A stretch of DNA of 64,000 nucleotides from a virus: positions 9,960 to 73,959 of IMG/VR virus record IMGVR_UViG_3300045241_000115. The stretch is one strand, 5' to 3'. Of this stretch, positions 4,716 through 61,351 are shown in pieces (within the stretch, counting starts at the first letter, position 1; each line of letters opens with the position of its first letter). The position numbers and the translations under genes are program-made. The notes below the pieces were generated by a model. It had not been told where the DNA came from, made no database searches, and worked only from the letters and a program-made list of their open reading frames with translations.

Positions 4716-4916
4716 ATGAGCGAGTATCCATGGGGATCGGGACGCGCGAATGCACTCCGCTGGTGTGCGCTGGAAATATGTCGCAGGGAGCATCCCGCTA
4801 ATCTTTGCGACGAGCCATGTGTTCGCTGCTGGCAGGGAGCGGAAGCACAGATGCTGGAGGCGCAGGAGGTTGCCCGGTCGATCCGGCGAGCGCTGATGCG
4901 CCGGAAGGCTCCATAA
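4716..4916 (+). CDS. small Cys-rich cassette gene
   Basis: Starts and ends inside the repeats; C-terminus KAP*. Confidence 0.6.
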   Translation: MSEYPWGSGRANALRWCALEICRREHPANLCDEPCVRCWQGAEAQMLEAQEVARSIRRALMRRKAP

Positions 4917-4959
4917 TTGCCGACCCGGTTATCGATCCATTGAGGAGTTTCAGGAGGTT

Positions 4960-5184
4960 ATGAGTGAGCATCCCGAGCAGTATTTGGGCGACGGACTCTA
5001 TGTGAGCTTCGACGGCTACCATGTGGTCCTGCGGGCACCGCGCGTGGGCGGTGATCACTTCGTTGCCCTGGAACCAGAGGTGATGATCGCGTTTCAAGCA
5101 TACCTCACGGCTTTGGCTCGTAAGCATCCGGAACTGCAAACGCGATGGAATATGATGCGTGAGGCTGACCGCAAGACACCATAA
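4960..5184 (+). CDS. small cassette gene (YLGDGLYVSFDG motif)
   Basis: AGGAGG SD within the repeat; C-terminus KTP*. Confidence 0.7.
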   Translation: MSEHPEQYLGDGLYVSFDGYHVVLRAPRVGGDHFVALEPEVMIAFQAYLTALARKHPELQTRWNMMREADRKTP

Positions 5185-5227
5185 TTGCCGACCCGGTTAT
5201 CGTGCCAATGAGGAGTTTCAAAGGGTT

Positions 5228-5437
5228 ATGAGAGAGGTGCATGGCGTGGCTTACGCACACAAAGTCACCATGTCGGAGGCGGAAAGCGAGACTCAAAATG
5301 TGCTCGTCACGGATGACGGAACCGGAATCCGGCTGACGCTCACTGCTTGCTCGTATCCGGCGCGGCTCACTCCCGAGGAGGCTCGGTTCATAGCGCAGGC
5401 GCTCACGGAGGCAGCCGATCGCTGCAAGGCACCATAA
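5228..5437 (+). CDS. small cassette gene
   Basis: ATG within the repeat; C-terminus KAP*. Confidence 0.6.
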   Translation: MREVHGVAYAHKVTMSEAESETQNVLVTDDGTGIRLTLTACSYPARLTPEEARFIAQALTEAADRCKAP

Positions 5438-5482
5438 TAGCCAATATCGTCCCTTCGGGTCGGTGAGGAGGGTTTCGCCACA

Positions 5483-42000: not shown

Positions 42001-42064
42001 TCAGGTAGCCTTCGGCGGTCTCTTCCTGATTGGCCGAGAGTTTGGAGACGGTATGCCATTCCAT
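39050..42064 (-). CDS. DUF2213-type prohead protease fused to type IB topoisomerase and VIP2/Alt-like ADP-ribosyltransferase
   Basis: Protease: GYLIC..VPIARTG.Q.Y, HP, S.GY, NHVALV..GRCG. TopoIB: GRD.KGR.Q..Y, IRPG, YGATTL, F.GKKG, KDFRT, LGNTP...SYI. ART: IN..LR, LRRG, GFTSTS, ENEVLL. Confidence 0.85.
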   Translation of the reverse strand: MEWHTVSKLSANQEETAEGYLICRNVPIARTGTQIYWENEVPPLQGDQGGRVHVDREASEVFSPDSVRSFIGKPLVDDHPYDAVGPDNYSDLAIGYVSNPRRGEGAYDDLLLADLIFTTRRGIDAVKRGKRAISVGYNAHYEQTAPGLGRQRNIFCNHVALVDEGRCGSRCTILDSGTPEYSYDAFVESEHPRVKSGPGGGEFTSGGGGGGGAAAHHETTKVANGKRVTSSGADLPEHIQKLKLPPAWTDVTYSPDPAAKLQATGRDVKGRRQLVYSAEFSAKQAAAKFARAKKLAEAFKDVRKQNEAARRELATREAADATALIMATGIRPGSTGDTGAETQAYGATTLQGRHVVSLKDGVRLRFTGKKGVSLDLPIQDPGIAKMLLKRKEAAGARGDLFGVNAGGLLKHVHSLGDGSFKTKDFRTHLGTQTALDEVERTPEPTNEREYKRAVKHVATIVSQKLGNTPTIALQSYISPVVFAQWQQSAGIGGTADAAWADDDGDRELPDAHWGEVGSPLPDPDEDDEDPDDELLEVTPADVIAMLGFDPLEFLEDEDEGEADDGADIDYDNGEDIDYADADFVEGEHPRVPKGSPGGGEFTSGGGGGGGGSGGSKVAAAAQTVPHPPAYWSTPAGKKLHALTKELLTKGTDPHEAAAQIQQLASNYKHGSIAKYANTMIAHVGAAHGVTPSAKAAPKPTASVPPKPAATPTPQPAASTPPPQSAASLHAQIFKIAVDPSNISAAKIAKITALANTSLDPSVKTLANQWIQKLSGTPVGTVSPATSASPSSSTTPSPNAVRTPNQKRLEIAQAKRKQAHDVPSAAAPQARAICPSLDRSWWTKPDVSKAGKAACVSYKGGSGGINGALRSDATAPAYAQEMVDDIDLLFEHPDAVLHADAILRRGEDVPDAMLQQWKDGLAAGKIVRPQRLGFTSTSMAKEAAFSSKSVIYEIVARKGTPALGIWAADKSYVSENEVLLRHGIAFDVYEIEKVGKQHIVRCTTV

Positions 42065-42289
42065 GATGACGGGGCGCCTCCCCTGACCGACGAGGAACGA
42101 CACAAGCAGCAAAAGTTGCGGCTGTGGGCTATGGAGTTGTCCTATTCCATGCCGGAATTAGACGACCTGATGCTCGGTCGGCCGCCTCGTCCGCCGCCGT
42201 CATTCTGGCAGCGCGTGAAGCGTTGGTTTCGGCGGCTTTATCGCGACTGATAGACGCGCACGCGCCCGTTGCGCATCACGTCGCTGCGT

Positions 42290-44267: not shown

Positions 44268-44693
44268 TCAGACGTTCGGCGGATCCTTGAGCGCCAGCGG
44301 GTTGTCGCGCGCCCATTGGTTCCAGGCAACCGCCAGATCGTAGTCGGCGAACTTGGCGTAGATCGGCCGGTTTGCGCCGTTGTTGGTCGCCAGCGCATAG
44401 AACATCTCGGTCGGTGTGCCGCGCGCGATGTCGGGAGCGAACAGCGTGGTGCCTTCGCGCACGATCCAAGCCGGCGATTTGACCGGCGATGTGTCAGGCG
44501 GCGGTCCCCCCATCGAGCCGAGGATCACCGGCACGACCGGTACCGCGCCCGTCTCATCGACGAGCCATGCCAGCACGGGGTTGTCGTGCAGGATCACCCA
44601 GGCGAGGCCGGGCCCGATACCATCGACGGGGTCGGGATTGTATTCGCAGGTGACCAAAATCGAGCCGGTGACCGGTGCAACGGCGAGGGTCAT
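44268..44693 (-). CDS. hypothetical protein
   Basis: ATGA coupling to the portal gene. Confidence 0.55.
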   Translation of the reverse strand: MTLAVAPVTGSILVTCEYNPDPVDGIGPGLAWVILHDNPVLAWLVDETGAVPVVPVILGSMGGPPPDTSPVKSPAWIVREGTTLFAPDIARGTPTEMFYALATNNGANRPIYAKFADYDLAVAWNQWARDNPLALKDPPNV

Positions 44694-46222
44694 TCCTCAT
44701 TCTCCATGCTGCTCGCGGCACCATTGCCGCTCTTGGGAACGGGGGTCGAGACGCCCGGCATTCCTGGACCGACGCCCCCGCCAGCGCCGTTCGTCTTGCC
44801 ACCAGGGGCCGCTCCGGGCATTCCCGGCATCGTCTCTCCAGGCTCGGGCTGCTCCCACGGCGCGGGCGCCTCGCCTGCGTCCTCGATGTCCTGCTCGGAG
44901 ATGTTCGTGAACCTGCCTGTTTGGATGCTGCTCTGTTTCAACTCTTTCAGCGCGATCTGCGTGGTGATCACGCCGGCGTCGTGCAGCAGCTTGATTGTAT
45001 CGGAGTCGCGTTGCGCGACCTCGGCCTTTTCCATCTCGTTCAACTGATAGAGCGAGTTGAAGGTGAACGCGAACGTATCGGGCGTATCGGTGCCAAGCGT
45101 GCTGCGCCATATCACGTCGAACAGCTTGGTCAGCGGCCTGCGCAACCGCGCCTCCTGCTGCGCCTTGATCATGTCATAGTACTGCCGGAGGTCGCTTTCC
45201 CCGGTAGAGTTCAGCCCAGCCGGCGATTGACCGAACAGCCGCACGAGCGGAATGCCGAGGGCGCCCGAGATCTGCTGGCCCAGCATCAGCAACGTCTCAG
45301 ACAGACCAGCGAACGAATACGAGTGCGTTTCGAATTCATCCTCGGCATCGATGACCGTCAGCCCTTCGTTGGACTGATAAATCCGCATCAGTTCCATCAG
45401 CTTGTGGAACTTCTCGGTCAGCTCGGAATTGAATGCGACGAGGTTGCGGTAGTCTTTGACCTTGTACGTGCGCAGATAGGCTTTATAGAGAAGCTGCGCG
45501 GTGCCCATCGTGCCGCTGTCAAATGCGACGAGACGGTCCTGCAACCGCTCGATCACGCTCATGCCCCACAGGTTCTCAGTGATGCGTTGATTGAACGGCA
45601 GCCCGATGCCGTCGAGACGAATGCAGCGGGAGTAATGCACCTTCATGTTCGGCAGATACGGCGCCTGCTGAACCACGTCGTACTGCACGGGCATGCCGTA
45701 ATCGGGGCCGAACTCCTTGACGAGGTTCTGATACGTTGGCTGGACCATCCAACGATCCAGCACGACGAAGCCTTTGAGCTGATCCTTCGCGATGCGGTCG
45801 GTCAGCAAAGGCTGCGCCGTGTCCTGACCGTCGATCATCATGACCATCAGCGCGCCGCCGTACAGCCGGCTCCATTTGATCGTGTCGCCCAAGCTCTGCC
45901 ACATGCAGAGTTCGTTGATGCGGGTGTGGATTTTTTCGATGTCGTCAGGCGGCGTGTCGGAATTCATGATCACGCCGGCCCGCGTCATGTCGTCGGCCAC
46001 CACATCAACCGCGGCGCCGACGACCCACGAGCCGCGATACATCCACTCGAGCTTCTGCCGCAGGCGAGTGAGCGGCAGATAGCCGTAGGTCGTGGCCGCC
46101 ATCAGGTTTTGCGTGCCGATGCCCACGCGCGCGGCGAAGTTCTCCACCGAGTCCGTCGTCATGGCGCCTTCCCATGACGATGCACCGGCGCGCACCCGGA
46201 TGCGTGGGCGCGTGCCTGACAT
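44690..46222 (-). CDS. portal protein (DUF1073-like)
   Basis: MYRGSW....VD..A.DMTR, W.RLYGG, IP..RLFGQSP.GLNSTGESD...YYD. Confidence 0.9.
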   Translation of the reverse strand: MSGTRPRIRVRAGASSWEGAMTTDSVENFAARVGIGTQNLMAATTYGYLPLTRLRQKLEWMYRGSWVVGAAVDVVADDMTRAGVIMNSDTPPDDIEKIHTRINELCMWQSLGDTIKWSRLYGGALMVMMIDGQDTAQPLLTDRIAKDQLKGFVVLDRWMVQPTYQNLVKEFGPDYGMPVQYDVVQQAPYLPNMKVHYSRCIRLDGIGLPFNQRITENLWGMSVIERLQDRLVAFDSGTMGTAQLLYKAYLRTYKVKDYRNLVAFNSELTEKFHKLMELMRIYQSNEGLTVIDAEDEFETHSYSFAGLSETLLMLGQQISGALGIPLVRLFGQSPAGLNSTGESDLRQYYDMIKAQQEARLRRPLTKLFDVIWRSTLGTDTPDTFAFTFNSLYQLNEMEKAEVAQRDSDTIKLLHDAGVITTQIALKELKQSSIQTGRFTNISEQDIEDAGEAPAPWEQPEPGETMPGMPGAAPGGKTNGAGGGVGPGMPGVSTPVPKSGNGAASSMENEE

Positions 46223-47598
46223 CAGAGGTTCGCCCAGACGTTCAGGTTGGTGGCGGCGACGAGCTGAAAGGCGCGCGAGGTCGCGTCCGCGTCATCATCG
46301 TGCGGGAGCATGGGGAAGCCCTCGAGCATCTGAAACCAGCGCTCGTTCCAATCGCCGCGCAGCACGAGCACGTTGCCCGCCTGGGCCTGGGCCGAGAACG
46401 GACTGAACCGCGTGATCTTGTCGCCGGTCTCGGGCGAGTACTCGATAGGGAAGCCGGCCAGCATGCGCACGAAGGCGGCGATCTGATGCTTGCCCGCTTG
46501 GCCTGGATCCTGTGGCAGCCCGACCTTGCAGCCGTAACCGTCCTGGCTGGACGTATTCAGCACGACACGCTCGACATCGGCGGGTGTGCCGCGCATGGCT
46601 GAGGCATGCAGCACGATGTACTGGCCTTGCAGCGTGCGGCCGATCTTGACCGATGCCGTCCAGTCCGGATCGTTCTCTTTGGTCTCCGGCGTCGCCGCAA
46701 GATCCCAGCCGCGTCCGCTCAGCACCAATGCTGGCGGGATGTCCACCACACGAACCCACGAGCGGTTGAAGTACAGGCCAGCGGACGGCCTGATCTTCCA
46801 ATTGCCGTTCAACAGCCTTTCGCGTTCGACCGCCGGCAACATCATCAGATTGCCGAGGTACGCCGGGTCGTTGCGCATCAACGCCGGGTTGTCGGCCAAC
46901 TTGGCGGCTATGAATGTGGCGGATTTGATAGTCGCTCTCGATTGCCCGGTTGCGCGCATCGCCTCGTGTTTGCTGTCGAACCAGAGCAGCCCATCGTCGG
47001 GGCCGCGCACGAAGTAGCGGACGACGCCGGAGCGTTCGGCGATCGGGTAGCCGGACTGCTGGTCGATCCACCAGGCGATGAACTCGGCGACCCACGAACC
47101 GGCATCGGCATTGCAGCTCGCGCGGATGTATGGCCGCACGCCGGTCAGACCGCGGTTGCGGGAGAGCAGGTAGAAGAACTGATGGCGGGTGAACGTGGTC
47201 AGCTCGTCGAAGCAGATCAGCGGAACCTGCGAGCCGTGCCAGTCCAGGACGGTGTGTTCATATTCCAAATGGCTGAGTTTGACGCTGCCGCCGTTGGGCC
47301 AGCGCCATTGCAGCAGATGGTTGATCGGGATGCCCTGGCCGTGCGGGAACACCTTCATGCTCTCGGACCACAGCCCGCCCGGGCGACGGATGTCGGTGGT
47401 GTTGCGGCGGAACATCACCGCATCGAAGCCGCGTGTGCGGGAGGGGTAACGCATCGCTTCGAGCAGGAGCGCCCACGATTTGCCCGAGCCGGCGGCGCCG
47501 CCGAAGATGGCGATGTCGGCCGATGAGCTGAGGAAGGCGAGTTGCGGGCCTTCCTGCGGCATGATGCGGCGTTCGGTTTGTCCGATGGCGGCACTCAT
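46222..47598 (-). CDS. terL: terminase large subunit
   Basis: GGAAGSGKS, ICFDELT, ASCN, WDLAAT, QDPGQAG, HDD.AD. Confidence 0.95.
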   Translation of the reverse strand: MSAAIGQTERRIMPQEGPQLAFLSSSADIAIFGGAAGSGKSWALLLEAMRYPSRTRGFDAVMFRRNTTDIRRPGGLWSESMKVFPHGQGIPINHLLQWRWPNGGSVKLSHLEYEHTVLDWHGSQVPLICFDELTTFTRHQFFYLLSRNRGLTGVRPYIRASCNADAGSWVAEFIAWWIDQQSGYPIAERSGVVRYFVRGPDDGLLWFDSKHEAMRATGQSRATIKSATFIAAKLADNPALMRNDPAYLGNLMMLPAVERERLLNGNWKIRPSAGLYFNRSWVRVVDIPPALVLSGRGWDLAATPETKENDPDWTASVKIGRTLQGQYIVLHASAMRGTPADVERVVLNTSSQDGYGCKVGLPQDPGQAGKHQIAAFVRMLAGFPIEYSPETGDKITRFSPFSAQAQAGNVLVLRGDWNERWFQMLEGFPMLPHDDDADATSRAFQLVAATNLNVWANL

Positions 47599-50100: not shown

Positions 50101-50792
50101 GCGGTGGCCTCATGGCGTGAGGATGCGACAAAAGACTGTTTCGCTAGTTGAAACAGTTGCGACAATAACTGGCCGAATATTGCTGCGGGTGCCGTCTGAT
50201 CGTGTCGGAAGCCATTGATCTGACAAGGAAATAATACAGATTGTTCCGTTGCGGCAATCTGCGACTATCGCATTGCTATCGATGATCTTTGACAAATGAA
50301 TACGGATCGCACGCCGCCCCACACGGGGCGCGGGGGTCGCTCGGGGGCCAAGCGCACGTTGCGCGGGGTCGAACCCATCCACGAGCCGCTTACGCGATGT
50401 GCACGTCTACCGCGATCCGATGATCTGTTCCTGATCATTTCCCGTCTTTGACAAATAAATCCGCCACCCTGAGCACGAAACGACATCCGTGGTCGCGCAG
50501 CCTATCGGCGCAATCGGATGCACGTCATGCGAGGGGAGCGGGTTTCATAGGCAACCCAATTCACCGCATTCCCGCGCTTCGGCGCTGCCTGTAAGGCGAT
50601 GCGGGGTGATGTTCGTGGATGTTTAGTTGCATCTCGGTGCAACCCTCTGCCCGTGGCTATCGGGGTGAGGGCGGTTACCTGCCTGCAAGGCGTGCGACGA
50701 AAGCTGACGCGAACAGCACCGGAGTGGTTTGGTGTGTTCTTTTCTTTCTGTTGATTGGCATCGTGTGAAGGCTACGGCCTTTGCGCGATGCC

Positions 50793-50841
50793 GGTCCGGG
50801 ATGTGAGCCATCCCGCTGAACGAGGCCATGAGGCCGAAACC
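50793..50841 (+). ncRNA. type III hammerhead ribozyme with variant core (CUGAACGA)
   Basis: GGUC^ CGGGAUG-UGAGC-CAUCCCG CUGAACGA GGCC-AUGA-GGCC GAAACC; predicted cut after 50796. Confidence 0.7.
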
Positions 50842-50860
50842 CAACAGAAAGGAACATCAT

Positions 50861-51124
50861 ATGACAATGGATCAATTTGTTCTCGGCGCGCGCGTGCGTC
50901 TCGTTCGCCGCGCCGGCGGAAACTACCCGGGTGCGAGTTTCTGCATCGAACCCGGCCCGATCGGCACGGTGATCAAATCGCCCGAGGATTTCTGCGTGGA
51001 CGAGTTCGCCCCGAATGTCGGGGTGCGGTTTGATGACCGCGTTGCCGATCTCGATATGTGGGACAACATCGTGATCGTGGGCGACGACTTCGACGCCACG
51101 GCCGATCATTTCGAGACACTCTGA
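50861..51124 (+). CDS. hypothetical early protein
   Basis: Conserved leader and ATG. Confidence 0.7.
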   Translation: MTMDQFVLGARVRLVRRAGGNYPGASFCIEPGPIGTVIKSPEDFCVDEFAPNVGVRFDDRVADLDMWDNIVIVGDDFDATADHFETL

Positions 51125-51193
51125 GACGAAACACGGCGCGTTGCGTCGTGTCCGTCGGCGCCTGCCCCTCCCGACGCTGATGAGTCAGGGGCA
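51125..51193 (+). ncRNA. type II hammerhead ribozyme with pseudoknot
   Basis: GAC GAAA, stem III ACACGGCGC/GCGUCGUGU, C^51152, stem I CGUCGG/CCGACG, CUGAUGA GUC; UGCCCCU/AGGGGCA pseudoknot. Confidence 0.92.
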
Positions 51194-51212
51194 AACAGAA
51201 AGGAACAACCCT

Positions 51213-51383
51213 ATGCGCAAGCAAATCGAGACGATGAAGACGAAGCTGCAGACGATGCTCGCCCGCGCCGAAGAGAAGGCCGACAGCGAGAACGAGACGG
51301 TCGGCGACAAGTACGCCGCCGTCATGGACGGTCTGCAAACCGCGCTCGACGGCCTGGACGAAGCGTTGCTCGCATTTGAATGA
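51213..51383 (+). CDS. small helical early protein
   Basis: Conserved leader and ATG. Confidence 0.7.
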   Translation: MRKQIETMKTKLQTMLARAEEKADSENETVGDKYAAVMDGLQTALDGLDEALLAFE

Positions 51384-51456
51384 CGAAACGCGCGGTGGAT
51401 GAGACATCGCGCGTCTGCATGGAACCCCGCCCATCCTGCACTGATGAGTCAGGGCG
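51381..51456 (+). ncRNA. type II hammerhead ribozyme with pseudoknot
   Basis: UGAC GAAA ... GUC^51415, stem I UGCA(U)GGA/UCCUGCA, CUGAUGA GUCA; CGCCC/GGGCG pseudoknot. Confidence 0.92.
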
Positions 51457-51475
51457 AACAGAAAGGAACATCACA

Positions 51476-51778
51476 ATGCCAAAGACCACAATCATGCTCA
51501 AGGCCGACGTTGCGCAGCGCAAGGCGCGTCATACGTGCCCCCAGTACGATCAATTCAAGAAGCCATCGCGCAAGGCGTCCAGAGCGAAGATTGATCCGAC
51601 GACAACCGCCGAGGCGGATCAGGCGATCTACGAGGCCGCACTGAGTCAGGTACGCGAGGCGATGCGCCGCTTCGCCGGCCCGCATGCGTCCAAACGCCAG
51701 CTCAAAGAGATCGACGCGGCGCTGAGCGAGGCATTCGGGCAACTCGACGCCATCGCGTACGATCTTGTTTGCATGTGA
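51476..51778 (+). CDS. hypothetical early protein
   Basis: Conserved leader and ATG. Confidence 0.7.
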   Translation: MPKTTIMLKADVAQRKARHTCPQYDQFKKPSRKASRAKIDPTTTAEADQAIYEAALSQVREAMRRFAGPHASKRQLKEIDAALSEAFGQLDAIAYDLVCM

Positions 51779-51847
51779 CGAAACGCGGCGCGCGCAGCGC
51801 TGCGTCTGCACGGACCTGCCCCACCCTGCACTGATGAGTCAGGGGCA
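51776..51847 (+). ncRNA. type II hammerhead ribozyme with pseudoknot
   Basis: UGAC GAAA ... GUC^51806, stem I UGCA.GG/CC.UGCA, CUGAUGA GUCA; UGCCCC/GGGGCA pseudoknot. Confidence 0.92.
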
Positions 51848-51864
51848 ACAGAAAGGAACAACCC

Positions 51865-52059
51865 ATGCCTAAGTTTCGTATCTCATACGAGATCGAATGC
51901 GAGGCCGCCAACGCTGCCGAAGCGTTGGAGGGCTTTTTGTCGTCCGGCCACGTTCACGAGGAAGAGTGGACGGTGACGCGGGTTCATCCGCGGCCATCGT
52001 CTGTCATCGTGACGGCGCGCAACCCGCGCAAAATACGGCGTGACGGAGCGACGCGATGA
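51865..52059 (+). CDS. hypothetical early protein
   Basis: Conserved leader and ATG. Confidence 0.65.
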   Translation: MPKFRISYEIECEAANAAEALEGFLSSGHVHEEEWTVTRVHPRPSSVIVTARNPRKIRRDGATR

Positions 52060-52583
52060 GCGACAGCACTTCCCAGCTTGTCGCTGTTCTCGGCATGTTG
52101 GGATCGCAGTTCGACGGCGAGTGCCTGAACGCGGCCCGGATGGCCGAGAAAATGCGACGCAAGATGGACAAGACGTGGCAGCAATTGCTGACCGCCGGCG
52201 CGTCGTCTCCCAAGGACGAGCTCGGCTGGCTCGCACGCGCGTTGCGTGCCGAGAAAATGGTCAGCGATCTGACGGCGCGTATCGGCAAAATGGAGGCCGA
52301 ACTTGCCGAATTGCGCAAGGCTCGTCCGAGCGCGTCCGCGTCCTCGACCGGCCCACGTCCTCGCAGTCCCGGCTACAAGTACTCACTCAGCGCCGAGACC
52401 GAGCAGATCTTGATCGACAAGATGTTGCTGATCGAACGATCGACCAACGAGATCTATTACATCACCAAATGGCCGCGCGCGCATTTGCGCGTCGTCCTCG
52501 AGCGCATCGCCCATCGCCGCAAACTCGAGCTTCATGTGCGGCGACGGTTCGGCAGCACGTTCTATCGTTTCACGCGTGTCTAA
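52056..52583 (+). CDS. coiled-coil early protein
   Basis: LGMLGS.FDGE.LNAA motif; ATGA overlap. Confidence 0.65.
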   Translation: MSDSTSQLVAVLGMLGSQFDGECLNAARMAEKMRRKMDKTWQQLLTAGASSPKDELGWLARALRAEKMVSDLTARIGKMEAELAELRKARPSASASSTGPRPRSPGYKYSLSAETEQILIDKMLLIERSTNEIYYITKWPRAHLRVVLERIAHRRKLELHVRRRFGSTFYRFTRV

Positions 52584-52694
52584 CCCGTACGGATGCAGCA
52601 TCGTTCGATGCTGTATTCGCCTGGGTTAGCGGGGACTCATTCCGAGTCCCGCCCAGGCATCGCAATCATGCGATGGATACAGAAAGGAACATCC

Positions 52695-53039
52695 ATGCCT
52701 ACCATGAAGACGACATCTGAGCCCCGCGGTCAGACGGCCATCATCTGCAAGGTGCTGCAGCACAAGGACGGTTATACCGCCCAAGAGCTGCTCGCCGAGA
52801 CGGGTGGCACGACGCCGCACAACTCCTATTCGCTCCAGCTCATCGCCGATCGCTTCGGCTATGACTTCGTGTCCCACAAGGGCAGCGAGTACGAGGACGG
52901 GCTGATGCGGTATCGCTTCGTCCGCAAGGCGGCCCGCAAGGCCGTGAGCACCCGTCGCGCCGGCAAGGCGAAGGCGGTTAAGGCGGCGGCCGCGTCGACC
53001 AAGCGGCCTGCGAAGAAGACCGCGAAGTCCAGGGCGTAA
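52695..53039 (+). CDS. HTH-like protein with Lys/Ala-rich tail
   Basis: GYTAQELL..TG; histone-like C-terminus. Confidence 0.65.
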   Translation: MPTMKTTSEPRGQTAIICKVLQHKDGYTAQELLAETGGTTPHNSYSLQLIADRFGYDFVSHKGSEYEDGLMRYRFVRKAARKAVSTRRAGKAKAVKAAAASTKRPAKKTAKSRA

Positions 53040-53171
53040 CACGAGACCGAGCGCGGCGGGCGATCATATCGTCCGCCGCGAACGGACCTGACCCGTACGG
53101 ATGCAGCATCAAACGATGCTGCATTCGCCTGGGCCAGTGATGGTACAGGGCTAAACAGAAGGGAACACCGA

Positions 53172-54173
53172 ATGGCGAGAGAGTTTCTCACGTTGAAGCA
53201 ATTGCGCGAGAGGACCTGGAAGAACCAAGACGAGGCTATTCTGGATCTGAAACGCGCGGGGCTGAAGCCGGTCGGCACCGACTATGTGCTGGGCGAGCAT
53301 ACGCCCGGCAGCAAGGTCTGGCAGTTGCTGGACCGCACGGACGCCGATGGTTCGCAAGAGCCGCCGACGGCCAAGCCGGCGAAGGCCGCGAAGGCTCCCA
53401 AGAAGACGGCCAAGTCCGAACATCCGGGTGACGCCGACATGAAAGCCAAGGCCGCGAAGGCGACCGGCTATGACGTTCACTTCCGAGTCAGTCCGACCAA
53501 GAAGTTGAACGAGCAGGCCGACACGTTGGAGGCGGCCCGTGCGATCGCCGCGCGCATGAATGCCGAACACGGCAAGAATGGGCGACGTGCGATGATCTAC
53601 GCGCGACAGGCGAAGGGTCCGTCCATCCCGATCACAGGCGACGATCCGCCTGTGACGAAGGTGGCGGAGAAGGTGAAGGGCGCGAAGGCGAAGCCCGCCG
53701 ATGCGCCGGAGCCGGAGCCTGCGCCGGAGCCTGCGAAGCCTGCCGAGCCGGCCAACGACATGACGCCGTTGCCGGCGGCCAACGGGCCGTACAACTTCCG
53801 TCTCGATCAGCCGCCGGCGCAGCATTCGCTGTTGCCGACGGCGCTCGAATGGTCGCGCAAGACCGGCTTCGTCGTGGCGATCATCGACAAGGCCGGCAAC
53901 GTCGTGCGCAAGATCGACGGCCGGCTGGGCGGCAAACGTCCTACGCGCACGGCGACGCGCGTGGCAACGCGCACCCCCCGCGCACCGCAGGGCGAGGGCA
54001 AGATGGCCACCGCCACGCGGCTGCTGATGCGTCCCGAGGGCGCATCGGCTGACGAGATCAGCAAGGCGACCGGATGGCCGACCGGGCAACGTCATATCAA
54101 CAAATTAGCGAAGCTCGGCGGGCTGAAGATCGTGAACGTCCGCGACAAACATTGGCGGCTCGTCAAAGCCTGA
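53172..54173 (+). CDS. multi-domain protein with C-terminal DUF3489-like HTH
   Basis: LL.RPEGAS..EI..ATGW. Confidence 0.65.
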   Translation: MAREFLTLKQLRERTWKNQDEAILDLKRAGLKPVGTDYVLGEHTPGSKVWQLLDRTDADGSQEPPTAKPAKAAKAPKKTAKSEHPGDADMKAKAAKATGYDVHFRVSPTKKLNEQADTLEAARAIAARMNAEHGKNGRRAMIYARQAKGPSIPITGDDPPVTKVAEKVKGAKAKPADAPEPEPAPEPAKPAEPANDMTPLPAANGPYNFRLDQPPAQHSLLPTALEWSRKTGFVVAIIDKAGNVVRKIDGRLGGKRPTRTATRVATRTPRAPQGEGKMATATRLLMRPEGASADEISKATGWPTGQRHINKLAKLGGLKIVNVRDKHWRLVKA

Positions 54174-54245
54174 CCCGCGAGGGATGCAGCGTCGGTTGAC
54201 GCTGCATCTCCCTGGGCCAGACCAGGAAACAGAAGGGAACATCAC

Positions 54246-54437
54246 ATGCAATATCACATGCCACTCGATCCGGAATGCCCGGACGTCGCGGCCTTCACCG
54301 AGTCATTGTTCGATGACCCGATGACGACAGCGATGGGCGCGCCGGTCGATGACATCATTGAAGGCTTCGACAGACGACATCGCGCGAAGTGCGCGCGGTG
54401 TCAGGCATTCGGGGCCGCCAACGTGGAGGTGCGCTGA
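54246..54437 (+). CDS. small Cys/His (Zn-binding?) protein
   Basis: C...H...CARC. Confidence 0.6.
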   Translation: MQYHMPLDPECPDVAAFTESLFDDPMTTAMGAPVDDIIEGFDRRHRAKCARCQAFGAANVEVR

Positions 54438-54655
54438 TGAAGATCGGTCCGTGGACGGTGCATGCCTCGATCACGAGCGATCGGGTGTGCGAAGCCGTGG
54501 AGCGTCATCTGACCAGCTTGGACAACCCGGGATTTTGCCTCGCTTGCGGCGCGGATGCAGAAGGCGTTGAGCCGGACGCTGAAGGCTACGAGTGCGAAAT
54601 CTGCGAGGAGCCCGCCGTTTGGGGCGCCGACCAGCTTCTCATCTATCTCGCCTAA
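54437..54655 (+). CDS. Zn-ribbon protein
   Basis: GFCLACG....VEPDA..Y.CE.C....V.GA. Confidence 0.7.
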   Translation: MKIGPWTVHASITSDRVCEAVERHLTSLDNPGFCLACGADAEGVEPDAEGYECEICEEPAVWGADQLLIYLA

Positions 54656-54739
54656 CCCGCGACCGATGCAGCGACACGTTCTCTGCATCTGCCTGGGTTA
54701 GACAACGGGGGCCAGGCCCCGAACAGAAAGGAACATCAC

Positions 54740-55063
54740 ATGCGAAAAACTGCCATGACGCCGATCGAACGTGATCGATTGATGGTGCTGTCGCCGGGCG
54801 AATGGCCGAAGTGGCCAGTTCTACCGCTCATGCGGCGGGATGGCGATTTTCATGCCGACGACGCGGCGGGATTTCTTCTCGCCGTGGTCGATCAGTCGAG
54901 ACCGGTCGTTTATCTCGGCACGATCTATCGGACCGACGACATCGCCACAGAAATCAAACAGGAAACCGGCAAAAGAGCCAATTGGTCCCAGATCGTGGCC
55001 AGACTCCCAAAGCGGGAGTTCGACACGTTGGATGCCATGCTCTCCGCATATCGCATCGACTGA
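54740..55063 (+). CDS. hypothetical early protein
   Basis: Conserved leader; WP.WP.LP..R. Confidence 0.7.
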   Translation: MRKTAMTPIERDRLMVLSPGEWPKWPVLPLMRRDGDFHADDAAGFLLAVVDQSRPVVYLGTIYRTDDIATEIKQETGKRANWSQIVARLPKREFDTLDAMLSAYRID

Positions 55064-55149
55064 CCCGCGACGGAAGCAGCATCACTGATGCTGCTTCTGC
55101 CTGGGTCAGTTTTACCGCGCCACCAGGGGCGCAACAGAAAGGAACAACC

Positions 55150-55422
55150 ATGACTACACGGATGACCATCGGTGCCGTGCTGAAGGCGAAAGCCGGCAAG
55201 CACGATCCCGAACCGGTCTATTGGATCAGCGAGCCTCCCGCTGTCTGCGAGCTTTGCGGACAGAAGATCAAGGAAACGTTCGCTGATGCCCGGACGGTTC
55301 AAGGGCCTTGGGGCTCCTTGGATCTGAAATGCCTGCGCATCCACGGTGTGGGTGTCGGCAAGGGCAAGGGCCAGGTCTATCGTCGTCAGGACGATGGGCG
55401 CTGGCTGAAGGTCGAGGGCTGA
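55150..55422 (+). CDS. Zn-finger-like early protein
   Basis: CELC...F.DART..GPW....C...G.G.G.G.GQ.Y. Confidence 0.7.
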   Translation: MTTRMTIGAVLKAKAGKHDPEPVYWISEPPAVCELCGQKIKETFADARTVQGPWGSLDLKCLRIHGVGVGKGKGQVYRRQDDGRWLKVEG

Positions 55423-55423
55423 C

Positions 55424-55699
55424 ATGGCCGAATTGCGCATGAGTCCCGACAAGTACGAGATGGTCCGTGTCGTTGGAGACTGGATACGTGAAAAGGCGGA
55501 CGTCGAATATGCCACCTTCGACGGCCTCGACCGGTTGACGATCCCGGACCTCAAGCTGCTCTGCCTCGCTATCGGGTGCAAACTCGACCTGCACGAGGTG
55601 GCGCGGATGCGTGACTATTACCGGCGGCAATGGGAGTACCGCAACGGCAAGAAGGCAACGGTCGTCATCGATCTGAAGGCGATCACCGACGACACCTGA
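55424..55699 (+). CDS. hypothetical early protein
   Basis: Tightly packed behind the upstream gene. Confidence 0.6.
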   Translation: MAELRMSPDKYEMVRVVGDWIREKADVEYATFDGLDRLTIPDLKLLCLAIGCKLDLHEVARMRDYYRRQWEYRNGKKATVVIDLKAITDDT

Positions 55700-55777
55700 C
55701 CCGTGTGGATGCAGCGAGTTAGCTCGCTGCATTCATCTGGGCCAGACCCCAGAGCAACAGAAAGGAACACATGACAC

Positions 55778-56791
55778 ATGAGACAACCCGAATGGGTCCA
55801 ACGACCCGACGGCCGAGGTACGCGCCTCGAGCGTGAGGCAACTCGCGTCGAGGAATGGAGCCCGACCGTCACGCAGATGCGCGATGTCGTCCAGGCAGGG
55901 CGCGTCTGCGGACTCGACTTCTCGGAGATGCTGGACCTCATGCCGGAAGGCCACAACTATCTGGTCGGTCAGGCAGAGGTCGAGCGGGCCAGCGAGATAG
56001 CATTGGAGGCCGTCACCACCGGGCGTGTGATCGACTTCGGCTTCCTGCCGAATGCGGTCATCCGCTTCGGCGGCGAGCGCGGTGGGCCGCTCTGGAACAG
56101 GAGCGCGCTCGCCATGCCGTTCACCGACCCGTGGATCATCTATCACCGCTGGGAGGGACAGACCGGCATGTATCTGGTCAATCCCTCGTCGGACGGCAGG
56201 TCCTTTCAGATCGTGGAATTCCAACCAGCAAAGATCGATGGCGAGAACATGCTGTTGATCGGCGACCGCGGCGAATTCCACAAAACGCCCGATGGTTCCG
56301 ATCTGCCGGACAAGCGGTACAACGCCTGGATGATGCCGTCGGCGGCACGATTTGTCTCCGATGGGATTGCGCGCAATCGGATCAACAACGACGCGTCCTC
56401 GCCCGAGGGCGCGGCCGCCGGCAACGTCGGCGATCCGGTCATGATCGCGTTGCTGATCCTGAATACGCGCAACATCGACCGCGAGACGGTGAGCGCGCCG
56501 CCGAAACTGCAGGCGGCGCGTCGCAAGTCGGGCAAACCGCCGATCCCGAACTACGATCGGGTGAACTCGGCGCCTTACGTGACGGCCATCAACATCTCCG
56601 GTCCGCGTCGCGGACGCAGCGAGGACCTGGGCGGTACGCACCGTTCCCCAGTGCCTCACATCCGTCTCGGCCATCCCCGGACTTACCAGACGGGGCGCAG
56701 CATTTTCATCCGCGATACGCTGGTGGGAGTGCCGGACGAGCAGCGCGCGGCGTTCAAGAGCCAGCGCACTCATTACGAAGTGAAGCCCTAA
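55778..56791 (+). CDS. conserved phage protein with C-terminal SP..H.R.GH.R motif
   Basis: RRK.GKPP...GTH.SP.PH.R.GH.R. Confidence 0.7.
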   Translation: MRQPEWVQRPDGRGTRLEREATRVEEWSPTVTQMRDVVQAGRVCGLDFSEMLDLMPEGHNYLVGQAEVERASEIALEAVTTGRVIDFGFLPNAVIRFGGERGGPLWNRSALAMPFTDPWIIYHRWEGQTGMYLVNPSSDGRSFQIVEFQPAKIDGENMLLIGDRGEFHKTPDGSDLPDKRYNAWMMPSAARFVSDGIARNRINNDASSPEGAAAGNVGDPVMIALLILNTRNIDRETVSAPPKLQAARRKSGKPPIPNYDRVNSAPYVTAINISGPRRGRSEDLGGTHRSPVPHIRLGHPRTYQTGRSIFIRDTLVGVPDEQRAAFKSQRTHYEVKP

Positions 56792-56862
56792 CCGAAGCAC
56801 CGCGCGGTTCGCCGCCCGGTGTTTCGGCCAGCGCTTCGCTGGGCAACAGAAAGGAACACCAA

Positions 56863-57234
56863 ATGCCGAAAACCGACGCGACAACAGAGCGGGACGCGAT
56901 GGTGCAAGCCCTGCATGACAGCATGGCCTTGCGCAGTCCCGCCGAGTTCGTCGAAACGATGGAGTTACCCCACGATCTGTATGTCGCCATTGCCACCGGC
57001 CGTCCCGAGCTTATCACGCTCGCGACGGCACGGGACATGACGGCGGCGGAAGTCGCCGAGCTCTACGAGGTGATCGCGGTCCTGATCCGCACAAACTACG
57101 CGCTGCAGGTTCACGCTCGCGAGCTTGCGAAGATGGCGAGCGATTTCGGTCGTCAGATGCACGGTGCGGCGCGTCAGATCGCGGCGATCGAGCAGTTCGC
57201 CGACTTCCGGAAGTCAGACAATGACGACCGGTGA
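56863..57234 (+). CDS. hypothetical early protein
   Basis: Conserved leader and ATG. Confidence 0.65.
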   Translation: MPKTDATTERDAMVQALHDSMALRSPAEFVETMELPHDLYVAIATGRPELITLATARDMTAAEVAELYEVIAVLIRTNYALQVHARELAKMASDFGRQMHGAARQIAAIEQFADFRKSDNDDR

Positions 57235-57700
57235 GCTGCGCGCCAGTCTGCGCACGACGTCCGAGGGCTTTCGTCGCCTGGGGTCTTCCCCTGGCGGTTG
57301 GCTGCTCGCGGAACTCGTGCTGCAAGTCGGCGTCGACTATACCGCGCGGCCATTGCCGCGACGCTACATGCGCCGTGCGCCGAAGCAATGTTTTGCCAAT
57401 GCCGCCGCCCTGGTGCGACGCACGCGCGGATTGACTTACGTGGAAGGCTTCGTCCGCACGGCGCGCATCCCGTTTCCCGTGCACCATGCGTGGGCGGTCA
57501 ACACGGACGGCGAGGTCTACGATAACACGCTCGGCGATCCTGAGACCTGCGCCTATGTCGGGGTGCCGATCTCGCGGCACGATTATGCGGCGCAGACCAG
57601 TCCCGACAGCGCCAGCGTATTCCTCAATCACATCGGCATCCTGCGCGTGGACTACATCGTCTCGCGCTGTCCCGCCTTGCGGGAGATGATGCCTGCCTGA
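57221..57700 (+). CDS. transglutaminase/papain-like Cys-His-Asp protein
   Basis: KQCFANA...YVEG....HAW.....YD.T. Confidence 0.6.
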   Translation: MTTGELRASLRTTSEGFRRLGSSPGGWLLAELVLQVGVDYTARPLPRRYMRRAPKQCFANAAALVRRTRGLTYVEGFVRTARIPFPVHHAWAVNTDGEVYDNTLGDPETCAYVGVPISRHDYAAQTSPDSASVFLNHIGILRVDYIVSRCPALREMMPA

Positions 57701-57781
57701 TCAAGATGGAAGCACCGCGCCGCCCCTGGCGGTCCGGTGTTTCCACCCCGATCAGGGGACAACCAACAGAAAGGAACACCG

Positions 57782-58186
57782 ATGAACAGATACGTGGCGT
57801 TCTGCGCCATTTCAGTTCTTGCTGCGTGCACGATGGCACCGCCGCAGCAAAAATCTACAATCGCCGTCGACCGGTACGACGGCTCACCATGTTGGCCCAA
57901 CGACCAGCCGGATGCTGGACGGCCGCTGGAGCCGGGCGAATCGCAACTGCTGCACTTGTGCGGCTCGAACCCACGCCAGCAGGCGATCATGGACGCCGAG
58001 TATCACAAGGGCATGGCGGAGTCGGCGGCTTATACGCGTCAATGGCAGGCGCAGCATCCCGATGCTCGATCCTATGTCGGCATCAGCACAAGCGGGCGAC
58101 CGCTCGACTGCGTCGGATGGACCGAGGGAGGCGTATGGCAGTCTTCGTGCATGAGCCATCCCGGAGCCTGGCCGGGAGTTCGATGA
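57782..58186 (+). CDS. putative lipoprotein
   Basis: MNRYVAFCAISVLAAC lipobox. Confidence 0.6.
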   Translation: MNRYVAFCAISVLAACTMAPPQQKSTIAVDRYDGSPCWPNDQPDAGRPLEPGESQLLHLCGSNPRQQAIMDAEYHKGMAESAAYTRQWQAQHPDARSYVGISTSGRPLDCVGWTEGGVWQSSCMSHPGAWPGVR

Positions 58187-58449
58187 TGGACAAGACGAAG
58201 ACGCCGCCGCGCGGTGCGTTCGATTACCTGCTGCGCGACGTGGACAAGACGATCTGGCGCGATGCCGACCTGGGCGACGCGCCACCTGCGCCACCTGAAC
58301 GGGGTGGCGGCGGTCCGCGCGTACGCGTGGAGATCGAGATCGTGCAGCGCCCGCCCGCGCCTCGGCGTGAGTGGGCGATCAACAAAGTGCTGTTCTGGGT
58401 CGTCGCGATCATGCTGATCGCTGGCCTGCTGGGCAGTCTGCACGCCTGA
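58183..58449 (+). CDS. protein with C-terminal TM
   Basis: VLFWVVAIMLIAGLLG; ATGA overlap. Confidence 0.55.
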   Translation: MMDKTKTPPRGAFDYLLRDVDKTIWRDADLGDAPPAPPERGGGGPRVRVEIEIVQRPPAPRREWAINKVLFWVVAIMLIAGLLGSLHA

Positions 58450-58530
58450 CTCGCGAGGGATGCAGCGATACGCTCGCTGCATCTCCCTGGGCCAGACACG
58501 GAACCAGGGCAACAGAAAGGACGACACCAA

Positions 58531-59070
58531 ATGATGCACCGAGAAAGACTTGATCGGCAGATCGCAGTGCTGCGCGAGGTCGCGGCATCCGAGCGCGTAT
58601 TCGACATGCGCGCTTGGATAGAAAAGCCGCGCTCTCATGAAGGCGCTTGCGGCACGTCCGCTTGCGCGTTCGGCTACGGCGCGCTCGATCCGCAACTGCG
58701 GGCCGAGGGGCTGCGTATGGCGGTCGGCTTCACCAAGGAGGGCAACGACGAGAAGACCTGTGTCGATGTCGCCTCGAAAGCGGAATACAACGCGCTGGTG
58801 ATGACGCTGACGCTGGACGAGCTCAGCACGCTTTCCGCCTATCCGGAGTTCGGTGGGTTGTCAGGCTTCGAGGCGGCGGTGGAATTCTTCGGCATCACCG
58901 AGGACTCGGCGAGCTATCTGTTCGATCCCGACTTCTACCCCGATCGCTACGACATCACGCCCGAGGACGTGATCAAGCGCATTGAGAGTGTGATCGAGTT
59001 CGACGGCAGGATACCGCGCTCCTACGTCCACAACGAACAAGAGCCGGAGGACGACGAAGAGAATTCCTGA
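58531..59070 (+). CDS. hypothetical early protein (CGTSAC motif)
   Basis: FDM..W...CGTSACA.G...FFGI....YLF.P..Y. Confidence 0.7.
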   Translation: MMHRERLDRQIAVLREVAASERVFDMRAWIEKPRSHEGACGTSACAFGYGALDPQLRAEGLRMAVGFTKEGNDEKTCVDVASKAEYNALVMTLTLDELSTLSAYPEFGGLSGFEAAVEFFGITEDSASYLFDPDFYPDRYDITPEDVIKRIESVIEFDGRIPRSYVHNEQEPEDDEENS

Positions 59071-59150
59071 TCGAAGGGGCGCCGCATCCCACTTGGGGTG
59101 CGGCTGCCCTTTCGACCAGCAATTCGCTGGGAACAGAAAGGATCAACACC

Positions 59151-59783
59151 ATGAAGAAGCCCAACCGGGCAGTCCGCGAGGGGCGTTTCGACTGGCTGAA
59201 GCAGCACCGCTTCGATGTCGAGTTCGCCAAACGCATACTGCTCACGACCGGCGAATGCCGGCCGATGTTCGTCATCGTCGGCAAGGTCCGCTCGTCGGTC
59301 ATGCCGGCGCTGTGGAACAGCGACGACGAACGCGACACGATGTATCTGCTGATGACGTTGCTGGCAGCGGCGGACAATGCGGTCGGTCTCGTGTTCATCG
59401 CCGAGGCTTGGATGCGCGGCGTGCTGCAAGTACCGGGAGAGACCACAGCGCAGACGCGCGAGCGCGCTATGCAGGTGGCGCCACGTGACGCGGAAGACCG
59501 GATCGAGGTGATCCACGTCGTGTGCTGTTACCGCGACGATGCCGGCGAGAAGCAGACGTTGTATTCGATCCTCGAGATCGAGCGCGACGCGACCGGCAAA
59601 CCGACCGGGACACGTCCCCGCAACATCGAGGGAATCTCGATGGAGTCGCGGCTGATGACGTGCCTGCCGCCCAAGGAGTTCAGCGAGGACGAATGCGAAC
59701 TGGCGCGTCGGCTGGCGATGGACACCGCCGAGCGCGCCGGCATCAAGCTGAACCTCGTGCACCCTACTGTCGGACACGCCTGA
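59151..59783 (+). CDS. hypothetical early protein
   Basis: EAWM...P....DR.EV. Confidence 0.7.
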   Translation: MKKPNRAVREGRFDWLKQHRFDVEFAKRILLTTGECRPMFVIVGKVRSSVMPALWNSDDERDTMYLLMTLLAAADNAVGLVFIAEAWMRGVLQVPGETTAQTRERAMQVAPRDAEDRIEVIHVVCCYRDDAGEKQTLYSILEIERDATGKPTGTRPRNIEGISMESRLMTCLPPKEFSEDECELARRLAMDTAERAGIKLNLVHPTVGHA

Positions 59784-59870
59784 CCCGTACCAAGGCAGCA
59801 TGAGCGATCATGCTGTCCTGGCCTGGGTCAGATCATCGCGCCACCAGGGGCGCAACAGAAAGGAACACCA

Positions 59871-60557
59871 ATGACCAAAGCATATCTGATTGACTCGGCC
59901 GCGCGGGAAGTCCGTGAGGTCGAGCATCATCAGAACCAGAAGCCGACGCTGCAGGACCATCTCGGCGGCTACATCGAGGTCGCCTGGTCCTGGTCAACTG
60001 GCGAGGTCTGCTACGTGGACGAGGAAGGCCTGTTCAAGCCGCAGCGCGGCGGCTACTGGCTGGCAGGGCGTCCTGACCAGCCGATGGTCGGCAACGGCAT
60101 CGTCGTCGGCCGCGAGGTCGAGGACGACGCCGGCTTCCACACGGAGCCTCCGTCGTTCAGTCTCGATTTCCTGCGCGCTCAGGTCGTGTTCATCACGCGC
60201 GCGGACATCGATGCCTGGGCCAAGGGCAACCGCTCGCCCGGCGTGGCGTTCACCGGCTTCGATGCCGGCGGAGGGTTGGCGACGACCGAGGTCATAGCCA
60301 CGATGGGCGAGATTTACGGCGAGATGCCCTCGCCGTCTTATCCCGTGGTGGTCGACTCATTCGGCGCGCAGATCATCGGCGAGGCGACGACCGAACGGGA
60401 CGCGGCGTTGGTGCTGCGGACGTGGTACACGACGGAACGTCCCGGCTCTGGCGTGAAGATCGTCGGCGCCGAAGTCGGCAACGTGCTGATGGGCAAGAAT
60501 GATGCCCAGGGCACCTACGAGCAGGCGATCCAGGCGTGGATCGGGAGGGCGGCATGA
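59871..60557 (+). CDS. DUF3846-like protein
   Basis: LQ..LGGYIE.....YVDEEGL....VGN.IV.G. Confidence 0.7.
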   Translation: MTKAYLIDSAAREVREVEHHQNQKPTLQDHLGGYIEVAWSWSTGEVCYVDEEGLFKPQRGGYWLAGRPDQPMVGNGIVVGREVEDDAGFHTEPPSFSLDFLRAQVVFITRADIDAWAKGNRSPGVAFTGFDAGGGLATTEVIATMGEIYGEMPSPSYPVVVDSFGAQIIGEATTERDAALVLRTWYTTERPGSGVKIVGAEVGNVLMGKNDAQGTYEQAIQAWIGRAA

Positions 60558-60778
60558 GCGACGATCCGTTCCTGCCGCCGTCGGTTCCGCTGATGTCGGC
60601 AGTCAAGGCGCGCAACATCGCCCGTAGCTGTCAGGCCATGGCCAATCATCTCCGAGACCAAGGCGTCGAGTCCGGCACCGTCCGACTGCTCGAACAGCGC
60701 AGCGCATGGTGGATGGCCTATTCCATCGCTCTGTCGCAGATACCGCCGGGCAAGATCGACATGGGGGAGTCGCCGTAA
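60554..60778 (+). CDS. hypothetical protein
   Basis: ATGA overlap, GGAGG SD. Confidence 0.55.
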   Translation: MSDDPFLPPSVPLMSAVKARNIARSCQAMANHLRDQGVESGTVRLLEQRSAWWMAYSIALSQIPPGKIDMGESP

Positions 60779-61041
60779 TGGACCCCGATGCCTGCCTGCG
60801 GGCGTTGCTCGACGCGTTCCGCGACGGCGATCGCGAGGCTGCCTACCAGGGCCTCGAGGACTTGCTGGATTGGTGCTCCAAGGGCGGCTTCCTGCCGAAA
60901 GACCCGCGTCTCGACGTTGGTCTGGAAGCGGCCGCGGCGACGGCAGAGCATCTGCGCCTGACCGCGCAAGTGCTGATCAAAACGGCGGAGAACTACGAGC
61001 GCGCGGTCACGCGAGGAAAAGAACACACCAAACCAGGGTAG
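60778..61041 (+). CDS. conserved phage protein (MDPDA.L...L..W...GGF.P)
   Basis: TAATG coupling; motif. Confidence 0.65.
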   Translation: MDPDACLRALLDAFRDGDREAAYQGLEDLLDWCSKGGFLPKDPRLDVGLEAAAATAEHLRLTAQVLIKTAENYERAVTRGKEHTKPG

Positions 61042-61053: not shown

Positions 61054-61091
61054 AAAGGGCGCTGGCGGGAAACCGCTGGCGCCCTTTTTTT
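61054..61091 (+). terminator. intrinsic (probably bidirectional) terminator
   Basis: AAAGGGCGCTGGCGG-GAAA-CCGCTGGCGCCC-TTTTTTT between convergent operons. Confidence 0.85.
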
Positions 61092-61351
61092 GGGCCACGG
61101 GCGCGGCGATTCCCGGGCAGTCTAACTAGAACTATGGCTGATGACAGCCTGCATAGCAATACCTTGATTTTCGGCCTGCTTGCGGGAGTCGGTCCGCAGC
61201 ACTATCTTTCGCCCAGGAATGGCAGGCAAGACAGCAGGCCCCTCGTCCTATCGGGGAGTCGGTGCCCTCACCGGGTGAGTCATGTTGTTCCTTTCTGTTT
61301 GGAACGGCGGTGCTGGTCGGCGCCGCCGTTCCTGCGTACGGACGCCTGTGG

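Follow-up and report, generated by a model that had tools for sequence, protein, structure and literature searches.

What do structured RNAs do when they stand, one after another, in the gaps between the small genes of a single phage operon? The question is raised by the IMG/VR record IMGVR_UViG_3300045241_000115, from which we analyzed a stretch of 64,000 nucleotides (positions 9960–73959 of the 73,959-bp record), hereafter called the window. Its operon at 50861–61041 on the plus strand contains 22 open reading frames (ORFs) without internal stops and has a single terminator, located at its end, and fifteen junctions along it carry a structured RNA ahead of a common leader. Four of these RNAs are hammerhead ribozymes and the other eleven belong to an uncatalogued family of two-hairpin modules, in which covariation backs all three helices: the upper stem, a basal helix a-a' and a downstream duplex b-b'. 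Our view, which we hold tentatively, is that the operon would be one long transcript split into 15 translation units by RNA-level junction modules, and that these modules probably mark sites at which the long message is cut or insulated.

Layout of the junctions and their hammerheads

The junctions are recognizable by their leader, AACAGAARGGA(AC), whose 15 operon copies span 50843–59864 on the plus strand, each lying 15–20 nt upstream of an ATG. When up to one mismatch is allowed, AACAGAARGGA occurs 18 times in the window compared with 0.7 copies expected, a number equaled in none of 100 shuffles. All 15 operon leaders have a structured element upstream that starts at or beside the preceding stop codon, and the repeated layout of stop codon, structured RNA, leader and ATG that the original prediction described is borne out at 15 of 15 junctions. 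Hammerheads occupy junctions 1–4 and two-hairpin modules junctions 5–15, both kinds of element being closed by the same type of helix (UGAC...GUCAG) and followed by the same leader. Outside the operon, the leader also lies upstream of a ParB-like gene at 1377–2975 (leader at 1360–1370, plus strand) and at 61289–61299 on the minus strand, where a GC hairpin precedes it and the first gene of a leftward block follows at 61283.

The elements at the first four junctions had been called hammerheads, and Rfam alignments together with motif reading agree, identifying one type III variant and three type II ribozymes, all on the plus strand. Searching Rfam at its gathering thresholds gave no match anywhere in the window; the hammerhead matches come from its E-value mode, in which none of the four reaches the gathering cut-off (37 bits for Hammerhead_II, RF02276, and 48.5 bits for Hammerhead_3, RF00008) and the second is not reported. 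Hammerhead 1 (50793–50841) is of type III and scores 24.1 bits with Hammerhead_3, with a predicted cut after 50796. The type II hammerheads 3 (51381–51458) and 4 (51776–51848) align to the full Hammerhead_II model, positions 1–66, at 25 and 27.6 bits, with predicted cuts after 51415 and 51806, and hammerhead 2 (51122–51192; predicted cut after 51152) was read from the sequence as CGAAAC, a 9-bp stem III, GUC, a 6-bp stem I, CUGAUGA and a 3-bp stem II. All three type II copies contain CUGAUGA, CGAAAC and GUC, and all three have the type II topology, in which stems I and III are closed by loops, stem II is open and loop I forms a pseudoknot with the 3' tail, the last being typical of type II hammerheads (PMC3088659). 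This pseudoknot is GCCCC/GGGGC in hammerheads 2 and 4 and CGCCC/GGGCG in hammerhead 3, a compensatory change. The sub-threshold type II scores stem from long loops and a 4-bp stem II, and the cut-off is a classifier threshold, not a structural feature.

In hammerhead 1, the core CUGAACGA has an extra nucleotide after A6 and does not contain the canonical CUGANGA; a natural A6a hammerhead variant assayed by Perreault et al. had low activity (PMC3088659). In the minimum free energy fold, the 3-bp stem III of this ribozyme is prolonged by a helix between an anti-leader at 50743–50753 on the plus strand (CUUUCUGUUG) and the complementary first leader, so that the first ribosome-binding site is covered. 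Read on the minus strand, the segment 50743–50753 itself gives a leader-like sequence. The first operon junction likewise holds a non-canonical type III hammerhead in three relatives, with CUGAAUGA in L038 (minus strand, first junction) and CCGAUGA in both G002 (also L120; 16683–16737, minus strand) and L168 (about 120–175), which means that across the four phages there is an insertion after A6 in two and a change of U4 to C in two. Since a non-canonical core recurs at this junction, a weakened first ribozyme is seemingly conserved, which suggests that the first ribozyme may be deliberately slow or regulated.

Clusters of hammerheads and also twisters flanking prophage genes, and the proposal that they process long transcripts, are already known (Perreault et al. 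2011, PMC3088659). The operon is like those clusters in that several hammerheads lie around single genes or short blocks without known function, and in the type II pseudoknot. It is unlike them in that ribozymes occupy just 4 of the 15 junctions, the majority being filled by uncatalogued RNA, and in that stem III of the first hammerhead, an A6a variant, runs on into the helix covering the ribosome-binding site.

Architecture and covariation of the two-hairpin modules

The eleven elements at junctions 5–15 had been described as hairpins of about 50 nt. They are real, they occupy the same slot as the ribozymes and, in 10 of 11 cases, they begin with the stop codon that ends the upstream ORF, but they are not plain hairpins of that length, as each consists of a built-in stop codon, a long variable hairpin and a short second hairpin, after which the leader follows. 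The consensus reads U(G/A)AYC-NN-GAC, a variable stem of 8–20 bp, GCC-U(G/C)G-RYCAG, 0–8 nt and b'. Eight of the modules are of type A, in which the basal helix a-a' includes the stop codon (UGAYC with RYCA), one is intermediate and two are of type B. Segment b (CCUNG...) starts immediately 3' of the upper stem, and the downstream segment b' complements b and usually also the a' strand.

Pairing was examined in an alignment of the 8 type A copies with 7 copies from L038, whose terminase is 71% identical, using a 7-bp basal helix and a 13-bp upper stem. In this two-helix test 94% of cells were paired and 12 pairs showed double changes, a result matched by none of 500 shuffles, and slid controls were 30–40% paired. 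A covariance model derived from the same alignment, R1, finds 61 sense-strand copies on eight contigs, namely 9 in the window, 8 in L038, 1 in L021, 14 in G002, 8 in G001 (also L121), 13 in L165, 3 in L167 and 5 in L168. No element was found by R1 in 37 prophage loci of Alphaproteobacteria and others, nor in G004 and G005, including the G005 operon. Sense-strand R1 scores are about twice the antisense scores and G-U pairs are far more numerous than A-C pairs, from which it follows that the module acts as RNA on the sense strand.

Among 52 full-length copies, basal pairs 1, 2, 4 and 5 are 96–98% paired with compensatory changes. Pair 1 is UA in 48 copies and GC in 2, and pair 4 is CG in 39 and UA in 11. 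Pair 2, to which the stop codon contributes its second base, is GC in 38 and AU in 12, so that this base covaries with the one it pairs with. At pair 3, 30 copies show an A-C mismatch and 20 an A-U pair. The b/b' duplexes vary in the same manner, including CCUGG/CCAGG, UCUGGG/CCCAGA, CCUCGG/CCGAGG, CCUCGAC/GUCGAGG, CCUCGAUC/GAUCGGGG and CCUCAG/CUGGGG. An exact complement of the b 6-mer, counting Watson-Crick or G-U pairs, lies within 32 nt downstream in 27 of the 52 copies for cognate pairs versus 12% for non-cognate ones (0 of 5000 permutations). The b-b' duplex extends across a', which makes the second hairpin incompatible with the basal helix, and for the same reason a coexisting pseudoknot was rejected for most copies. 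The two states are 0.2–6 kcal/mol apart in 6 of the 9 window copies examined.

The individual modules, all on the plus strand and scored with R1, illustrate how this plan varies. Three type A copies have a perfect basal helix and place CCAGG in the loop of a third hairpin, those at 54653–54718 (59.5 bits), 55061–55132 (68.8 bits) and 59781–59852 (57.8 bits), and in these the long hairpin is favoured by about 8–11 kcal/mol. The copy at 54171–54227 (69.7 bits) pairs CCUGG as b with CCAGG as b', relative to which the UCUGGG/CCCAGA duplex of the copy at 55697–55754 (60.9 bits) is compensatory. The module at 52581–52659 (64.2 bits) starts on a TAA stop and has an extra hairpin inserted between b and b', and another type A copy lies at 58447–58510 (61.2 bits). 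In the type A copy at 53089–53152 (67.8 bits), alone among the modules, the UGA does not serve the upstream ORF as its stop codon, which lies at 53037–53039. The module's UGA is in fact intrinsic, being present with a real stop codon 50 nt upstream in this copy or after an intrinsic terminator in G002 and G001. The intermediate module at 57698–57759 (25.5 bits) reads UGAUC...GAUCAG with CCCC/GGGG flanking a'. In the two type B modules, at 56789–56845 and 59068–59132, the stop codon and long hairpin are followed by a separate second hairpin of the form CCAGC(G)-loop-GCUGG (CCAGCG-CUUC-GCUGG and CCAGC-AAUUC-GCUGG, respectively) with no competing basal helix; type B is kept in L167, G001 and G002, which have junctions homologous to the one at 56789.

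The two-hairpin family is absent from Rfam 15. None of the 11 modules matches an Rfam family at E-values up to 10, and at that limit the twister, twister-sister, pistol, hatchet, hepatitis delta virus (HDV) and hairpin ribozyme models gave no match on them; the RAGATH models gave one chance-level match, to RAGATH-16 (E 8.8), located in coding sequence. HDV-like, pistol, twister and hairpin-ribozyme topologies were rejected on anatomy or for want of a model match, as were CRISPR-repeat mimics and a CCA-tailed RNase P minihelix. No description of three-way covariation combined with a built-in stop codon was found in the literature searched, including a review (PMC6765202), and phages do not figure in a 2026 preprint on new ribozyme classes.

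Related phages and genome context

Related phages fill the same slot in other ways. In G001 a twister-P5 ribozyme at 3700–3767 on the plus strand (40.9 bits against an Rfam cut-off of 37.6) lies exactly between a UGA stop codon and the leader, and in G002 there are a twister-P1-like match under the cut-off and a type III hammerhead. The first hairpin of the G001 twister-P5 resembles the upper stem of the two-hairpin modules. The original prediction had proposed comparing related phages for exchanges between element types, and such exchanges are found before homologous genes: L165 has a two-hairpin module before its homolog of gene 1, which in the window is preceded by hammerhead 1, and L168 has a canonical type III hammerhead (666–722) before a unit like genes 4 and 5, where the window has a type II hammerhead. 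That the two element types are interchangeable is consistent with their common slot, closing helix and leader and with these swaps before homologs; that they also share a function is what we infer from it. The leaders themselves are phage-specific, being ACAGAGGACACCA, AAGGACACCAAAUG or UUGAACAAAGGAC, and the element and the leader are therefore separable parts.

The order of genes differs as well. Homologs of the ORFs at 55778, 59151 and 59871 stand in reverse relative order in G001 and G002 with their orientation kept, which indicates cassette-wise shuffling. The earlier suggestion that the repeats serve as homology for shuffling fits this difference in gene order, insofar as exchange at the junctions would produce it. 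G001 also contains a third repeated element in 3–4 copies (2171–2258, about 2690–2760 and 3258–3327), composed of a GC-rich hairpin, AUUUCGUGUGCUC and the leader; it might act as a leaky terminator or represent yet another type of module. No ribozyme was found when the G005 operon was searched against Rfam, and exact-pattern scans of viral contigs returned only chance coding matches for hairpin plus leader and none for hammerhead plus leader.

The operon is flanked by a perfect 20-nt inverted repeat, whose left arm (50725–50744) is 100% complementary to a right arm 10,271 nt away (61016–61035), inside the last ORF and immediately before the terminator. Inverted repeats occur in equivalent places in G002 (1626–1646/14437–14457, 20 of 21 nt) and in G001 (1792–1811/15174–15193, 18 of 20 nt), with sequences that differ from that of the window. 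The flanking repeat could allow the 5' and 3' ends of the operon RNA to pair, like an rRNA processing stem, or it could be the scar of an inversion between oppositely oriented copies of the leader, an idea that arises because the left arms overlap the antisense of a leftward leader. The intrinsic terminator that closes the operon, at approximately 61056–61095 on the plus strand, is a GC-rich stem followed by seven T; it was read from the sequence and is not listed by the terminator scan.

The record has a CheckV completeness of 100%, and its window sequence is contained in one sequencing run only, of soil-metagenome DNA, and in no RNA run. A structural gene block on the minus strand, from about 14 to 50.1 kb, includes the large terminase (46222–47598), the portal (44690–46222), a protease fusion and tail genes. 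Within it, a 1020-aa head-protease-like protein (39050–42112, minus strand) matches at its C-terminus the ADP-ribosyltransferase PHROG phrog_3895 (E 4.5e-7). By terminase, the closest isolates are Rhizobium phages (55–56% identity) and the closest prophages lie in Hyphomicrobiales and other Alphaproteobacteria (55–59%), because of which the host is probably an alphaproteobacterium. The operon itself has no megablast match to isolated phages and its proteins have no assignable function: in a Pfam and PHROG search of 10 of them, DUF3846 was found in the ORF at 59871–60557 and, beyond that, just faint matches. Another gene array, at 4670–5450 on the plus strand, has a different repeated junction, CCATAAT-TGCCGACCCGGTTATCG ... 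GAGGAGTTTCA..GGTTATGAG, after at least 3 small ORFs and without a long hairpin.

How the modules might work

Dunn and Studier are reported to have defined RNase III processing signals, R0.3–R1.3, in the T7 early transcript. The long-hairpin state of the modules, with a basal helix of 5–7 bp, a mismatch region and an upper stem of 10–13 bp, agrees in shape and location with signals of this type, which are irregular hairpins between cistrons with an internal loop and a length of about two helical turns. The reading we favour, with somewhat less than even confidence, is that the two-hairpin module would be a nuclease-dependent processing and insulating module of the RNase III type that refolds after being cut. 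The long hairpin, about 22 bp with conserved A-C mismatches, would form first; a host double-strand-specific endonuclease of the RNase III type would nick its 3' side beside the upper stem, as at the T7 early sites; and the freed 3' strand (a') would then pair with b'. The upstream mRNA would thereby close with a hairpin right behind its stop codon. On the downstream mRNA a hairpin at the 5' end would precede the unpaired leader, because b abuts the upper stem and a cut between the two would leave the second hairpin at the very end. A phage-encoded RNase III was not found in these phages, so a host enzyme would be required. The products would have the same geometry as those of the ribozymes, since the four hammerheads are predicted to cut themselves such that the upstream mRNA ends in the stem III hairpin and the downstream mRNA, carrying a 5'-OH, has the stem I hairpin at its very start. 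The twister in this slot would likewise leave a 3' hairpin just behind the upstream stop codon and a downstream mRNA that opens with a hairpin. The repeated modules would incidentally supply homology for the exchange of gene cassettes.

The likeness to the T7 sites is that related irregular hairpins of about 20 bp, interrupted by an internal mismatch region, separate the cistrons of a polycistronic phage mRNA, and that a single nick would leave the upstream mRNA with a 3' hairpin. The modules differ in having no sequence relationship to those sites, in that their cleavage is predicted, and in their stop codon within the helix, their covarying b-b' and the ribozymes sharing their slot. Several features weigh against cleavage by such an enzyme followed by refolding. 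RNase III has weak sequence requirements, and it would not explain the conserved GAC/GCC around the A-C mismatch or the terminal CAG. The upper stem ranges in length from about 8 to 20 bp. Type B modules are two adjacent hairpins without a competing basal helix, so a switch cannot be universal, and in the three copies with a much stabler long hairpin the position of b' in a hairpin loop looks more like a tertiary contact than like refolding. Because the conserved GAC/GCC and CAG, the type B modules and the copies with CCAGG in a loop are left unexplained, rival accounts in which the module is an insulator or switch, or a new ribozyme, were kept.

An unlikely alternative is that the module is never cleaved and acts as an insulator or stabilizer, possibly with the terminating ribosome driving it as a switch. 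By occupying the built-in stop codon, a ribosome would mask strand a, so that a' pairs with b', and stable hairpins would keep the leader single-stranded whichever gene precedes it, shield the message against Rho or exonucleases and uncouple neighbouring cistrons. The stop codon does lie within a-a' in most copies, its second base covarying with its partner, competition between the two states is like that in an attenuator, type B modules have the two-hairpin form alone, and modules of sister phages are also found after an intrinsic terminator, as expected of an element of the 5' untranslated region. Yet a-a' and b-b' are retained where the UGA lies 50 nt past the real stop codon (53089) or after a terminator (G002 and G001), so a ribosome is unnecessary to explain the duality. 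Moreover, the purine-rich b' cannot mask a Shine-Dalgarno sequence, which leaves no regulatory output apparent, and the other occupants of the slot are all self-cleaving RNAs. Another rival, which we consider quite improbable, is a new class of self-cleaving ribozyme, whose active fold would use the basal helix, the conserved GAC/GCC internal region and CCUGG touching the CCAGG that lies downstream. The slot is common to hammerheads and twisters in one phage clade, nucleotides at the mismatch positions are conserved, three copies display CCAGG in a hairpin loop facing CCUGG and no known ribozyme family matches the modules; twister-sister, pistol and hatchet were themselves discovered through such an association with hammerheads and twisters (PMC6765202). 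However, conserved unpaired nucleotides are few, b-b' passes through a' and is thus an alternative fold and not a pseudoknot compatible with a-a', type B lacks the internal region, and other ribozyme-associated motifs failed to cleave in tests (PMC6765202). Those RAGATH-type motifs are conserved RNAs found beside hammerheads or twisters in phage-like regions and without self-cleavage (Weinberg et al. 2015, 2017; PMC6765202); the modules resemble them as conserved structures beside hammerhead and twister ribozymes, but have no Rfam RAGATH match and show a two-state architecture and stop-codon anchoring specific to them. The broader proposition that the module is an active RNA device, whether a new class of self-cleaving ribozyme or a switch that detects a ribosome terminating at the built-in stop and, by refolding from a-a' to b-b', decides what becomes of the downstream cistron, would by our estimate also be rather improbable.

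Two further accounts place the action at the level of DNA or of transcription. Cassette recombination sites resembling integron attC, with the hairpins as recombinase substrates, would account for array units of 1–2 ORFs plus one element, for the stop codon inside the element and for the gene order shuffled between phages. We think this very improbable, as no tyrosine integrase (PF00589) was found in the three complete genomes G000–G002, many G-U pairs are seen, all of them on the sense strand, and the model scores the two strands unequally, ribozymes share the slot, and homologous recombination between the repeats suffices for shuffling. Terminators or promoters that bound separate transcripts are scarcely credible: GC-rich hairpins immediately after stop codons do recall terminators, but no module has a U tract, the terminator scan flags none of them, the real terminator at 61056–61095 looks different, and there is one sigma-70-like site where 2.5 were expected, lying away from the junctions.

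The modules can be compared with two further systems. Arbiol et al. are said to have described, in 2010, PeSL cassettes (promoter-early plus stem-loop) in T4-type phages. Like these, the modules would be repeated regulatory units beside small accessory ORFs, with a presumed part in modular shuffling; unlike PeSLs, which carry a promoter, they have no promoter match and lie inside one transcript. RiboJ and Csy4 hairpins are synthetic insulators, in which a cleavage element and a small hairpin before a standard ribosome-binding site make expression independent of upstream context. The modules would share this arrangement, although they are natural, with cleavage that is predicted, whereas RiboJ and Csy4 are engineered.

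For the question of what hammerheads and twisters do in bacteria and phages, one phage clade here offers a natural substitution experiment, filling a between-gene slot with at least 3 hammerhead or twister forms and with a commoner non-ribozyme module. Whatever the role of the ribozymes is in this setting, it is very likely shared by the two-hairpin module. The modules would be natural counterparts of the insulators of synthetic biology, and they may help account for the shuffling of small accessory genes by phages in the form of ready-to-express cassettes.

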